This document shows, in pieces, positions 646 through 60,377 of a DNA stretch of 64,000 nt. The stretch lies in assembly GCA_963695245.1 (NCBI GenBank), contig OY968770.1, positions 1,126,238 through 1,190,237 of the forward strand. The letters run 5' to 3'. The position numbers were made by a program, and so were the translations under genes. Each line of letters begins with the position of its first letter. Within the stretch, counting starts at the first letter, position 1. Source of the DNA: an uncultured Gammaproteobacteria bacterium (GTDB taxonomy: Bacteria > Pseudomonadota > Gammaproteobacteria > JBGSLN01). Under the pieces are notes generated by a model, which ran no database searches, was not told where the DNA came from, and was given only the letters and a program-made list of their open reading frames with translations.

Positions 646-1098
646 TTGATTAAACAGTTAATCTTACATTATGAAATTGAAACATTGATTATCACCGGTG
701 ATTTTTTTCATGGCGTTCTATCCGACAAAACTTTACAGCAAATGATTTTTAAAAACATTTTTGAATTACCCATTAAGATTTGCCACTTGGTTTTAGGCAA
801 CCATGATAAAGATTTCCCTGAGCAAAATTGCATGGTAATACATAATACCTTTGAGATGGAACATATTTTGTTTACTCATGAACCCAGCCAGGATGAACAA
901 TTTAATATTTGTGGTCATATTCATCCAGTAGTGAAGCTTCGCGCCTTTAAAGAAACATTTCGTTTGAAATGTTTCTGGCTTGAATCCAAAAGACTAATCT
1001 TACCTGCTTTTGGAGAGTTTACGGGAGGCTTCGAGATTTTTAACTCCCAAAAAGGAATAATTTATGCCATTGCCGGCAACAAAATCCAAAAAATATAA
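646..1098 (+). CDS. PdeM-like calcineurin-type metallophosphoesterase (ligase-associated DNA damage response family); N-terminus appears disrupted
   Basis: Motifs TGDFFHG, LVLGNHDKD and ICGHIHP. The same frame continues upstream to a TGA at 556-558 and encodes EDCIAFGKANIFQKQGVAIPYGATLNDL, which resembles the PdeM ADLHLGK...F..G..P region. There is no ATG in that frame. ORF 461..643 is in another frame. Confidence 0.5.
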   Translation: MIKQLILHYEIETLIITGDFFHGVLSDKTLQQMIFKNIFELPIKICHLVLGNHDKDFPEQNCMVIHNTFEMEHILFTHEPSQDEQFNICGHIHPVVKLRAFKETFRLKCFWLESKRLILPAFGEFTGGFEIFNSQKGIIYAIAGNKIQKI

Positions 1099-1193
1099 TG
1101 TAGGTTGGGCTGATAAGCCCAACAGGGTATTCATTTAGTTATGGCTTTTTTTTATTGCTATGGCCTGTTGGGCTTATCAGCCCAACCTACATT
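1097..1193. repeat. MITE/REP-like palindromic element, copy 1 (short variant, arm loop GATAA)
   Basis: ATGTAGGTTGGGCTGATAAGCCCAACAG ... CTGTTGGGCTTATCAGCCCAACCTACAT terminal inverted repeats. Confidence 0.85.
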
Positions 1194-1199
1194 ATATTT

Positions 1200-2471
1200 T
1201 TATAAACCAAGCCAGCGAATAAAGCGATATGTGGTTCTAAAGGTTTGTTTACTGTTATCTTCAAAGGTTACCGTATAACTTTGTATTTCATTTTCTCTGT
1301 CATCTAAGCTGTTTAGGTTTACTTCTTTAATTGTTTTAATATCAACAATCTTAAAAAGCGTCATCCAAATGCCCCGAACCTTTTTGACCTGAGGAATAGC
1401 AAAATTAATGCTTTCTAAAGCAATGGCCTCTTGCTCATTAATTAAATTATCCTGGTTTTTATCTAATAACTTTAAGTCTTCTTTATTTAGTGCAATATAT
1501 TCAACAGAATTGATTTGTCTTCTAAGCATACGTTCCAGCGGGACCTGTTCACTGATTAAACTCTCATAATGCGCATTTTTTAAAATCATAATCGGTTCAT
1601 TTTCACTGTAGCGGCGATTATTATTTTTATCGATGAAAACAATCTTGCTAATGGGATCCTTCCTTTTAAAACTCATCAGTTTCTCGGTCTGAGTGTTTAT
1701 AGTATTTGGATAGGCTTTGCAATTTAAAAAACGGGATTTTTTCAACCAGTTTTCATCTGGAGAATAAATTACCAGTAAAGCATCTTCTCGAATAGTTTCG
1801 ATTAAGGGTCTGACCACTTTTTTAGGAATCGCAGGACAACCCCAACTGCGACCTGCACGACCATAAGCTTGAATGAAATCATCTTTCATATACCAGGCAG
1901 AATGCATTACAATGGCTCGGTTATATGCGCGATGATTAAAATTTCTCTCATGCCCTACGAGCTTTAAGGAAAAACCATGTCGGCCATAGTAAGATCTTTC
2001 TGTGGTATATACCCCAAGGCTGGTAGCTTTACTGTTATGCGTATTAGAAAAATGATCCACAACAGAAGTTCCAGAATTAATACCATGGGAAACATAGGTA
2101 TAAAATAATAATTTTTTTTGATTTAAATCAAAAACCCAAAGACGTTTTTCACTAGAAGCTTTAGAATAATCAATTAATGTAATAATATTTTTATGATAAA
2201 GATTTTTGGCCTGTGAACATGCAATTACTGCAACTAAGGTTTGAATTAAAGGTTGAGTTAAATCAAAATTTTCATTATTAAAAAATCTGGTTAGATCATT
2301 AATATTCATTTTTTCTTTAAAACACATTTTTTCAATGGCTGGATTGAAATTTTGCAAAGCTTTGTGATGTTCGGTATGCGTTCCAGAATATTTAAGTAAC
2401 TCATTGGCAATCACACTTTGAGTTGTCAATAATAATGCTAAACCAGATAAGAATATTTTCATAGCATTCAA
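1200..2471 (-). CDS. Secreted protein with L,D-transpeptidase (YkuD_2-like) catalytic domain, EnhA-like
   Basis: Signal peptide MNAMKIFLSGLALLLTTQSVIA. Core HGINSG...GRHGFSLKLVGHE...RAIVMHSAWY...AGRSWGCPAIP with a conserved His/Cys pair. Confidence 0.45.
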   Translation of the reverse strand: MNAMKIFLSGLALLLTTQSVIANELLKYSGTHTEHHKALQNFNPAIEKMCFKEKMNINDLTRFFNNENFDLTQPLIQTLVAVIACSQAKNLYHKNIITLIDYSKASSEKRLWVFDLNQKKLLFYTYVSHGINSGTSVVDHFSNTHNSKATSLGVYTTERSYYGRHGFSLKLVGHERNFNHRAYNRAIVMHSAWYMKDDFIQAYGRAGRSWGCPAIPKKVVRPLIETIREDALLVIYSPDENWLKKSRFLNCKAYPNTINTQTEKLMSFKRKDPISKIVFIDKNNNRRYSENEPIMILKNAHYESLISEQVPLERMLRRQINSVEYIALNKEDLKLLDKNQDNLINEQEAIALESINFAIPQVKKVRGIWMTLFKIVDIKTIKEVNLNSLDDRENEIQSYTVTFEDNSKQTFRTTYRFIRWLGL

Positions 2472-59265: not shown

Positions 59266-59267
59266 GC

Positions 59268-60275
59268 ATGGAATTTCAAGATTATTATAAAATTTTAGGG
59301 GTAGATAAAACCGCCAATGATGCAGATATTAAAAAAGCCTATCGCAGATTAGCCAGAAAATATCACCCCGATGTCAGTAAAGAAAAGAATGCTGAGGCTG
59401 AGTTTAAAAAAGTCAATGAAGCTTATGAAGTGTTAAAAGATAAAGAAAAACGGGCAGCTTACGATCAATTGGGTCCCAACTGGAAAGCAGGTCAGGATTT
59501 TCGTCCCCCACCTGGTTGGGAACAATCTTTCGGTGGCGGTGGCGCTGAATTTAGAAGCTTTACTGGTGGACAGGGACAAGGTGGCGGCTTTAGTGATTTT
59601 TTTGAGAGTTTGTTTGGCGGTGGCGGTTTTCGTCAAGGGGGATTTTCTCAGGGAGGATTCTCCCAAGGCGGTTTTCATCAAAGGGATTTTGGGCAGGCGC
59701 AACAGGATCCATTTGGGCAGCAAGCTCAGCAAAGTCAAAAGGGAGAAGACATCCATGCCCAATTGACTATTGATATTGAAGACGCTTACCATGGTGCCAA
59801 TAAAAAAGTAAATTTGCAGGTACCTGCTAAAAATGAATTTGGACATACTCAAATGAAACTAACCAGTTTGAATGTCAAAATTCCCAAAGGTATTTTATCG
59901 GGTAAAAAAATTCGTTTAAAAGGCAAAGGCTCTGCTGCCAAAGGCTATGGCGAAGCGGGGGATTTATATTTAGAAATTCATTATAAACCCAGCAATCAAT
60001 ATAAAGTAGAAGGTAAAGATATTATTTTTACAGTCCCAGTCGCACCCTGGGAAGCCGCATTGGGTGCTTCTATTACCGTTGAAAGTCTGGTAGGTAAAAA
60101 AACGGTTAAAATTCCCCCAAATACCAATAGCGGTAAAAAATTACGGTTAAAAGAAAAAGGGATGCCTGGAAACCCTGCCGGTGATTTTTATTATCAGCTG
60201 ATGATTATGAATCCACCTGTTGATTCAGAAGAACAGCAACAGGCTTTTGAGGCTTTGCAAAAAGCATTTCATTAA
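59268..60275 (+). CDS. cbpA: Curved-DNA-binding protein CbpA-like DnaJ homolog (J domain, G/F-rich linker, no zinc finger)
   Basis: J-domain [33 protein letters not shown]; no CxxCxGxG repeats. Confidence 0.8.
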
Positions 60276-60377
60276 TGTAGGTTGGGCTGACGAAGGAAGC
60301 CCAACAGTCGTGGCAATTAATTCAGGCCATAATTAAATGAATACCCTGTTGGGCTTCCTTCGTCAACCCAACCTACT
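60274..60377. repeat. MITE/REP-like palindromic element, copy 12 (degenerate right end)
   Basis: ATGTAGGTTGGGCTGACGAAGGAAGCCCAACAG ... CTGTTGGGCTTCCTTCGTCAACCCAACCTACTTTT. Confidence 0.85.

Follow-up and report, generated by a model that had tools for sequence, protein, structure and literature searches.

Repetitive extragenic palindromic sequences (REPs) of the GTAG type combine a 5' GT(A/G)G head with a directly adjoining GC-rich imperfect palindrome of about 20–40 nt, which can fold into a stem-loop (PMC2817692). One of them, GTAGGTTGGGCTGAGCTTGCGAAGCCCAAC, flanks the REP-associated tyrosine transposase (RAYT) YP_001425023 of Coxiella burnetii Dugway (Nunvar 2010, Table 1, PMC2817692) and has 29, 38 and 40 genomic copies in C. 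burnetii at 0, 1 and 2 mismatches (PMC2817692); it is also part of QMITE2 and the target of the insertion sequence (IS) IS1111 (Wachter et al. 2018, PMC5896051). Two REPs paired with their GTAG ends outside have been termed an HH dimer, a type in which the spacer tends to be conserved (Di Nocera 2013, PMC3733652). The RayT of E. coli needs both the GTAG and the hairpin, cuts single-stranded DNA (ssDNA) and transfers strands (PMC3479197). REP doublets of the kind called REPINs, in which two inverted REPs form a hairpin, commonly show compensatory changes on both sides of that hairpin, and the REPIN has been proposed as the replicative unit (PMC3116915). The element considered here is a palindrome that occurs repeatedly in a 64-kb window, i.e. 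the 64,000 nucleotides at positions 1,126,238 to 1,190,237 of contig OY968770.1 (assembly GCA_963695245.1, an uncultured Gammaproteobacteria bacterium), numbered from 1 in what follows. It is most probably a REPIN consisting of two inverted GTAG-headed REPs of the Coxiella class and a conserved spacer of about 38 bp, copied by a RAYT and expanded in this lineage. The sequence of its REP is not spelled out in the main text of Di Nocera 2013 (PMC3733652), and a literature search found no meaningful link of REPINs or RAYTs with Legionella and no paper that mentions the sequencing run ERR12040027.

There were exactly 12 copies of the element in the window, each 97–112 bp long and all intergenic. 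With up to 3 mismatches allowed, the arm 16-mer ATGTAGGTTGGGCTGA matched 19 times against 0.35 matches expected (0 of 100 shuffles reached 19), and all 19 matches fell within the same 12 loci that a repeat finder clustered and that nhmmer --max, run with a profile built from the 12 copies, recovered as its only loci (E from 1e-25 to 1e-37). That search found no further degenerate copies in the window, the next match having E = 0.016, and a relaxed REP pattern found no solitary half-sites, or single REPs, there. The tally of 11 full doublets, one decayed doublet (copy 7) and no solitary REPs leaves 23 intact REPs in the window, all between genes, at a density of about 1 doublet per 5.3 kb. The MAFFT consensus of the 12 copies reads as an arm, TCAATGTAGGTTGGGCTGACGAAGGAAGCCCAACAG, a core of about 38 bp and then the reverse complement of the first arm. 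A sequence-only reading of this DNA had arrived at the same count, the same consensus and the same division of core orientations, 8 in (+) and 4 in (-), which both the alignment and the nhmmer profile reproduce. The occurrence of both core orientations reflects insertion either way round, the arms being symmetric. Mean pairwise identity among the copies was 84%, rising to 90–95% within a core group made up of copies 4, 6, 9, 10 and 12.

The arms are what identifies the element. Each of the 23 intact arms has a GTAG followed by an 8-bp stem (GTTGGGCT/AGCCCAAC) around a loop of 4–11 nt, usually GACGAAGGA, that is, the GT(A/G)G head of a REP together with its imperfect, GC-rich palindrome, and the GTAG heads face outward so that the element is a head-to-head REP homodimer with a conserved spacer. 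A single arm folds into an unpaired GTAG and the 8-bp stem at -8.2 kcal/mol, and both the Coxiella REP and the REP flanking a RAYT in a metagenomic locus discussed below (L136) fold like it. By sequence comparison the window arm belongs to the published C. burnetii REP class. When the decayed copy 7 was left out, conservation was 100% in the GTAG heads, 97% in the stems, about 65% in the loops and 78–79% in the spacer, and with copy 7 included it was 94% in the heads and 97% in the stems; conservation is highest at the positions a RAYT would be predicted to recognize. The sequence-only reading had described 36-bp terminal inverted repeats (TIRs) and pointed to an IS with a TIR matching the arm 16-mer. 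The arms are indeed inverted, but they are not TIRs of the IS type, each arm being a complete GTAG-headed REP hairpin, and the enzyme to be expected is not such an IS transposase but a RAYT (HUH/Y1 transposase, PF01797) flanked by the REP. Since the REP class has already been published (PMC2817692), the novelty of the finding is lower than it would be for a repeat outside any known family, while the existence of the copies stands, as does the earlier description of a small non-autonomous REP-like palindromic repeat at gene ends.

The same REP is widespread, and elsewhere it accompanies RAYT genes. The generic REP pattern GTAGGTTGGGCTGA-N(2-12)-AGCCCAAC was found in 15 IMG/VR contigs and at least 120 metagenome contigs, and a stricter pattern (a 33-mer) was found among genome contigs in one metagenome-assembled genome (MAG). 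The REP head and stem GTAGGTTGGGCTGA...AGCCCAAC are present letter for letter in at least 135 contigs ranging from 32 to 69% GC (L001, L003–L017, L020–L139), where 58 head-to-head doublets occur with spacers that are mostly 8–30 bp and unrelated in sequence. Many of these doublets pair one loop type with another (GAGxxxCGA and GACGxxGGA), as heterodimers. When REP-bearing loci were searched by tblastn with the E. coli RayT from NC_000913, one RAYT was found, in L136, with 177 aa and 45% identity to E. coli RayT (E = 6e-45). This RAYT (MLYRRSRDCGATYFFTVNLADRQ...) has an inverted pair of GTAGGTTGGGCTGAGTAAAACGAAGCCCAAC exactly at its two sides, as in a classical REPtron, and by direct reading its HLH (HUH) motif and its VDYxxxNxxxH align with H59, H61, Y115, N119 and H123 of RayT (PMC3479197). 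It has at least 8000 homologues at E < 1e-10, the best 120 of which are mostly 60–65% identical and come from many taxa (P0006–P0125); hosts named for the clade include Gammaproteobacteria, Caldilineaceae and Phycisphaerales. Two of these homologues, in L140 and L141, lie between stem variants: one belongs to a genome with 66% GC and has GTAGGTTGGGGT...ACCCCAAC, and the other, from Crenothrix sp. D3, has GTAGGATGGGTA...ACCCATC. Judging from the flanks of the RAYTs in L136, L140 and L141, which carry the REP or stem variants of the same REP architecture, the REP class and the L136-type RAYT clade go together. L136 also contains a second, truncated RAYT at 7128–7355 (75 aa, 93% identical to the intact one and 1.2 kb away from it), with its own REP at 7396–7426 and two small open reading frames (ORFs) between the RAYT copies. 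In the loci from IMG/VR and the MAG, tblastn found no RAYT close to the REPs, weak tblastn matches in L001 and L011 being rejected as they were not transposases by Pfam, and no RAYT from the source contig was among the best 120 of the at least 8000 homologues. In the window there is no RAYT (best E 2.5 in tblastn with E. coli RayT and the L136 RAYT) and no transposase of any family by Pfam on essentially all ORFs of at least 130 aa, as the sequence-only reading had stated; with no transposase nearby, its two options of mobilization in trans or a relic remain.

The flanks of the copies showed no target-site duplication at boundary offsets 0–4, the longest flanking direct repeats being 0–4 nt and inconsistent between copies, and no common flanking target motif was found. 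Lack of a target-site duplication speaks against a classical miniature inverted-repeat transposable element (MITE) of the DDE type and is expected for HUH/Y1 enzymes. Such a MITE would be an internally deleted IS derivative whose 36-bp TIRs are bound in trans by the IS transposase, and this would suit the long near-perfect inverted termini, the size of about 100 bp, the intergenic position and the absence of coding capacity. It is nonetheless very unlikely, not only because a direct repeat was missing at every one of the five boundary offsets but also because the supposed TIR is in itself a full GTAG-REP hairpin and matches a RAYT-associated REP exactly, because the same REP occurs in more than 130 contigs unrelated to one another, either singly or with spacers of unrelated sequence, unlike the TIR of one IS, and because Pfam on the ORFs revealed no IS, transposase or parent IS with matching TIRs in the window. 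A different origin for frequent repeats at gene ends could be paired DNA-uptake sequences (DUS) read by a ComP-like minor pilin, comparable to the inverted DUS pairs at Neisseria terminators, and a ComP_DUS pilin gene does lie 10 nt from copy 8 (38615–39028 (-), PF16732, E = 1.9e-16). We regard this as extremely improbable, given that what is repeated here is no 10–12-mer but a 106-bp composite that includes a conserved spacer, that the arm is never solitary or intragenic in the 64 kb, and that the identical arm occurs in very diverse bacteria, flanking RAYT genes.

Comparison with relatives indicates that the family spread in one lineage. Six relatives with IcmB 75–87% identical were compared over 88.9 kb of syntenic DNA, in which there were 0 copies of the REP of this class against about 17 expected at the density of the window. 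The relatives at 84–87% IcmB identity include samples SRR33557408, SRR21362486 and SRR15505517 and the assembly GCA_041740675.1. The gap between icmE and icmG is 29–42 bp in three close relatives versus 262 bp here, where it holds copy 3, and the gap between the permease gene and icmF is 21 bp in the relative L142 versus 119 bp here (copy 5, of 106 bp, and a further 13 bp). The window REP was not present at any contig end of the relatives, and the full element (arm and core) was absent from JGI metagenomes and IMG/VR. As it is missing both from the relatives and from these metagenome and virus collections, the family is a lineage-specific expansion. L002, a Logan short-read contig from this organism, has its start within copy 12, as is typical at a multi-copy repeat. 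A contig end of the relative L145 (GCA_041740675.1), at 8940–8964, reads GTAGCTTGTAGGAGCGAACGCGAGTCC and looks like the head of some other REP of the GTAG type, so a different REP family may take the place of this one in relatives.

If the REPINs were a relic population, spread by a past RAYT that has since been lost and now immobile and slowly decaying, one would expect the missing RAYT in the window, the decayed arm of copy 7, the arm mismatches in several copies and a mean pairwise identity of just 84%. We consider this unlikely. The arms are perfectly complementary in 5 of 11 copies, the core group has retained its high identity, and heavily decayed remnants or singlets are lacking in the window; moreover, absence from relatives at 84–87% IcmB identity implies a fairly young expansion, and because RAYTs are typically single-copy, absence from 3% of a genome says little. 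At the opposite extreme, the population could be a young and still active REPIN-RAYT invasion in which a RAYT of the very widespread and highly conserved clade was horizontally acquired by this one Legionellales/Coxiellales lineage and has produced several hundred copies. Extrapolation gives about 400 copies, roughly 2% of the 2.17-Mb genome, if the window density is uniform. We offer this possibility tentatively and with some doubt; if true, a recent horizontal invasion would run against the view that REPINs and RAYTs are inherited almost only vertically, and the six element-free relatives would give a natural before/after system.

Each testable trait of a REPIN was found in the element. It has inverted REPs with a short spacer, which are predicted to fold into a single hairpin as ssDNA or RNA; the doublet is the copied unit, as 12 doublets and no singlets were present, the spacer is 78% identical among copies and shared arm variants define subfamilies (copies 1 and 8, and copies 2 and 11); the REP class is tied to RAYT genes elsewhere, in L136, L140, L141 and Coxiella; and the copies lack target-site duplications and differ in presence or absence from relatives, as judged by copy counts and gap lengths. 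A canonical copy is predicted to fold into one perfect 36-bp stem both as ssDNA (-46.8 kcal/mol, z = -14.7) and as RNA (-73.4 kcal/mol, z = -15.7), and this stem greatly exceeds the stability of the two arms folded separately (about 2 x -8 kcal/mol). The cloverleaf entertained earlier is therefore not the favored fold, since as DNA the long hairpin reaches -46.8 kcal/mol and each arm about -8.

The symmetry between arms deserves separate consideration, as the sequence-only reading had taken compensatory paired substitutions in copies 2, 5 and 11 as a sign of selection on structure. In copy 2 these are two mirrored 1-nt insertions rather than substitutions; copy 5 does have one compensated substitution, together with one uncompensated 1-nt difference; and in copy 11 a mirrored insertion no longer pairs and one loop has been replaced. 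A covariance analysis of the 12-copy alignment found 94.6% of cells paired and 2 cells changed on both sides, and 2 double changes were reached by 100 of 500 shuffles, so that substitution covariation was not significant. What does stand is that the arms of one copy co-vary, mostly through mirrored insertions and deletions, with arms differing by 1.64 edits within copies versus 2.55 between copies (permutation p = 0.004). In copies 8 and 11 there were mirrored length changes that diverged afterwards. Although the insertion in copy 2 bulges the REP's own stem (-5.2 vs -8.2 kcal/mol), the partner arm has its mirror image, which indicates that symmetry between arms is what is maintained. This could be because of selection for the long hairpin as a transposition substrate, because of templated correction within the quasi-palindrome, or because symmetric masters were copied. 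Some arm variants were in fact propagated by copying, as the subfamilies show.

An extremely stable hairpin on both strands, co-varying arms within a copy and the location of 6 of the 12 copies between convergent genes, often 0–10 nt from stops, might also suggest an element selected by its host, for example as a stabilizer or attenuator at RNA 3' ends, a bidirectional terminator or a protein-binding site, with function driving abundance, and E. coli REPs do affect mRNA stability (PMC3479197, PMC3733652). This explanation is compatible with the element being a REPIN. As a driver of abundance, however, host function is quite unlikely. There is no consistent T-run past the stem in the flanks, and the terminator scan does not call the elements while it does call the rpmE terminator, which rpmE retains in canonical form just upstream of copy 6. 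Rfam gave 0 matches at gathering score in the whole window, the covariation of substitutions was not significant, and a promoter and terminator consensus scan of five copies found nothing inside the elements. Two copies lie in divergent promoter regions and one inside an operon, and close relatives lack any copy at the same sites. Finally, the 38-bp spacer is conserved as sequence, a better fit to copying than to convergent selection.

For a REPIN, the mechanism may be proposed as follows. RAYTs are HUH/Y1 transposases of the IS200/IS605 superfamily. A single-copy RAYT elsewhere in the 2.17-Mb genome would bind the REP hairpin and GTAG in ssDNA, cut and rejoin, as has been shown for its relatives. 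The doublet, folded as one long hairpin with a 36-bp stem, would be copied whole into new intergenic sites without target-site duplication, and the surviving copies are those in tolerated places, which here are mostly the few bases between convergent stops. Once inserted, the palindrome would give mRNAs a very stable hairpin, at their 3' ends or between cistrons, where, by analogy with E. coli REPs, it may stabilize upstream mRNA, attenuate read-through or affect translation termination. Any such effects on host RNA would be a side effect and not the cause of abundance.

Several points weigh against this interpretation, in addition to substitution covariation that did not exceed the shuffled control. 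No RAYT was found in the window, which is about 3% of the genome, and the cognate enzyme of the source genome is assumed. The relatives' intergenic DNA is too diverged for base-level alignment of empty sites. The copy count comes from the 64-kb window alone. Effects at the RNA level are plausible by analogy, and per the literature examined REPIN transposition by a RAYT has never been reconstituted, even in model species.

The host is a member of a group in which few such repeats have been described. Its source contig is 2,165,533 bp long and encodes proteins that are singletons at 90% identity, and the window has 37.5% GC and contains a Dot/Icm type IVB secretion cluster (IcmL, IcmK, IcmE/DotG, IcmB, IcmF and DotU by Pfam) as well as a carotenoid-type cluster, two P450 genes, ClpB and L31. 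The nearest homologues of IcmB are on contigs at 84–87% identity and the nearest named ones are from Rickettsiella at 68–69%, and these identities place the source in an uncultured lineage of the Legionellales/Coxiellales group. The genome is small and AT-rich, and probably that of a host-associated bacterium. The placement of copies at gene ends and in divergent promoter regions, as first read, agrees with a Pfam check: six copies are between convergent gene ends (copies 1, 2, 5, 6, 8 and 12), four between tandem genes (copies 3, 4, 9 and 10) and two between divergent genes (copies 7 and 11). Some of the copies, several in all, touch stop codons or overlap with them.

Among the convergent settings, copy 1 (1097..1193, (+)) is a 97-bp member of a short-loop subfamily, with perfectly complementary arms and, in both REPs, a loop that falls 6 nt short of the usual length; its neighbors are a Metallophos ORF and YkuD_2, and the TAA stop of ORF 646-1098 (+) ends in the first two bases of the element. 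Copy 2 (12416..12527, (+)) is 112 bp long and has the same two 1-nt insertions in both arms, which are perfectly complementary, between a GHMP kinase and a P450 gene. Copy 5 (30616..30721, (+)) is between the amino-acid permease gene and icmF, 5 nt past one stop and 8 nt before the other. Copy 6 (35568..35673, (+)) is right after the rpmE terminator, convergent with a PMT_2 glycosyltransferase gene. That intrinsic terminator, at 35542-35561 with a T-run to 35567, has a 7-bp GC stem and T7, the T-run abutting copy 6, and copy 6 was inserted directly behind the existing terminator without replacing it. Copy 8 (38507..38604, (+)), 98 bp, is the other short-loop member, with equally shortened loops that have lost complementarity, between the aldolase gene and the ComP_DUS-type pilin gene. 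Copy 12 (60274..60379, (-)) is between a DnaJ/CbpA-like gene and a GIY-YIG ORF and contains both stop codons: in ORF 59268-60275 (+), as in ORF 646-1098 (+), the stop is made of a T and the AA that forms the first bases of the copy, and the last approximately 5 codons and stop of the GIY-YIG ORF 60363-60629 (-) are within it.

The tandem settings include copy 3 (21247..21354, (+)), which has perfect arms and is located in the Dot/Icm gene row from icmE/dotG to the gene in the icmG position, and copy 4 (28101..28206, (-)), the canonical copy, whose arms are perfect and which separates two tandem genes of the LuxR family. Copy 9 (45710..45816, (-)), between two tandem small ORFs, has one arm with the loop GAGGTCGGA, which makes it a heterodimer, and copy 10 (54876..54981, (+)) has perfect arms and separates a tandem MscS-type channel gene and Hva1_TUDOR ORF. 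In the divergent settings, copy 7 (37238..37343, (+)) has a decayed 3' arm that has lost its GTAG head, between the PMT_2 gene and a class-I aldolase gene, and the longest ORF of the PMT_2 glycosyltransferase (35697-37280 (-)) has its start inside this decayed copy. Copy 11 (56520..56627, (-)) belongs to the copy-2 subfamily; its mirrored 1-nt insertion now reads T on one side and C on the opposite one, the loop of one arm has been replaced, and it occupies the divergent region between an S49 peptidase gene and clpB.

Some observations concern the genes around the copies. The icmE/dotG gene (18020-21198, with decapeptide repeats and a TrbI domain) is read in three frames, with +1 shifts near 19086 and 19821 that are both due to an extra T in CAG^CTG, giving CAGTCTG. 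A systematic sequencing error at this motif was rejected as the cause because 15 intact CAGCTG sites are present in the window, and the frameshifts could reflect a real pseudogene, repeat-associated sequencing errors or another cause; in the relative L146 icmE is likewise split, into two ORFs. The two tandem LuxR-family genes around copy 4 (27199-29100) part icmB from the amino-acid permease gene. In relatives the permease directly follows icmB (13024-13149 in L142, 7344-7456 in L145), which suggests that the LuxR pair is an insertion or duplication specific to the source lineage, and a third LuxR paralogue is at 42738-43535. Adjoining the Dot/Icm genes, 6361-15200 encodes polyprenyl synthase, phytoene desaturase, phytoene synthase, lycopene cyclase and a CrtZ-like protein of the fatty-acid-hydroxylase type, followed by the GHMP kinase and two tandem cytochrome P450 genes, odd company for a bacterium of the intracellular type. 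Two large adjacent ORFs at 47537-49405 and 49469-52081 (622 and 870 aa) had no Pfam match and may be secretion-system effectors.

The finding leaves current concepts unchanged; what is new is the host lineage, the exclusive use of homodimers with a private AT-rich spacer, and the density of 12 doublets in 64 kb. For annotation, it accounts for a dozen odd palindromes, for stop codons donated by a repeat and for breaks in short-read assemblies. A dense REPIN population in a small Dot/Icm-bearing genome, in a group for which sparse Coxiella REPs were all that had been described, makes the birth, spread and cost of REPINs testable in a compact genome with element-free relatives as contrast. It also raises the questions of what a 36-bp hairpin between icmE and icmG does to secretion-system expression and what hairpins abutting stops do to translation. 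The mirrored insertions and deletions of the arms provide a clean, if small, data set for asking how palindrome symmetry is kept up, by selection or by templated correction, and the breadth and conservation of the GTAGGTTGGGCTGA...AGCCCAAC REP possibly offer a case for studying horizontal versus vertical spread.

Set against the described systems, the element resembles C. burnetii in its REP, where the GTAG head and 8-bp stem (GTAGGTTGGGCTGA...GAAGCCCAAC) are identical, the loop is of similar length, the REPs are likewise intergenic or 3' of genes, and the host is in the same order-level group of Dot/Icm-bearing gammaproteobacteria. The two differ in the loop, which is GACGAAGGA in the window and GAGCTTGCGA in Coxiella, in the arrangement as head-to-head homodimers throughout with a conserved, AT-rich spacer that is about 38 bp long and peculiar to this genome, and in density, about 1 doublet per 5.3 kb in the window versus about 40 REPs in the 2.16 Mb of Dugway. 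No copy in the window carries an IS1111 insertion, and the direct repeats of 7-11 nt that flank QMITE2 flank none of the window copies. In architecture, the element resembles the REPINs of P. fluorescens SBW25 (Bertels & Rainey 2011), which also consist of two inverted REPs and a spacer forming a long hairpin in ssDNA or RNA, are extragenic and of similar size (SBW25 doublets having been modelled as 71- and 110-bp units), have more doublets than singlets, a REP more conserved than the spacer and changes mirrored across the hairpin, and are associated with the RAYT class of transposases. The REP sequence class and RAYT clade differ, as does the host, which for SBW25 is not the small 2.17-Mb, AT-rich and probably host-associated genome seen here, and excision was seen there by population sequencing whereas the window element is known from assembled sequence. 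With E. coli REPs, bacterial interspersed mosaic elements (BIMEs) and RayT (TnpA_REP; Messing et al. 2012), the element shares the GTAG head 5' of an imperfect hairpin, and the window's REP class flanks a RAYT homologue that has 45% identity to RayT. BIMEs, however, are mosaics of REP types Y, Z1 and Z2 with defined linkers, often in tandem arrays, as opposed to the single REP type, isolated homodimers and one spacer type of the window. Correia elements of Neisseria, Rickettsia palindromic elements (RPEs) enterobacterial repetitive intergenic consensus (ERIC) sequences and other bacterial MITEs of the TIR type resemble the element in size, palindromic ends, intergenic position and the donation of stop codons; as MITEs they have IS-like TIRs, usually a duplication of TA or another target and often an IHF site, whereas the window element has none of those traits, its arms and core showing by eye no match to the IHF consensus WATCAANNNNTTR, and its arms are GTAG-REP hairpins.

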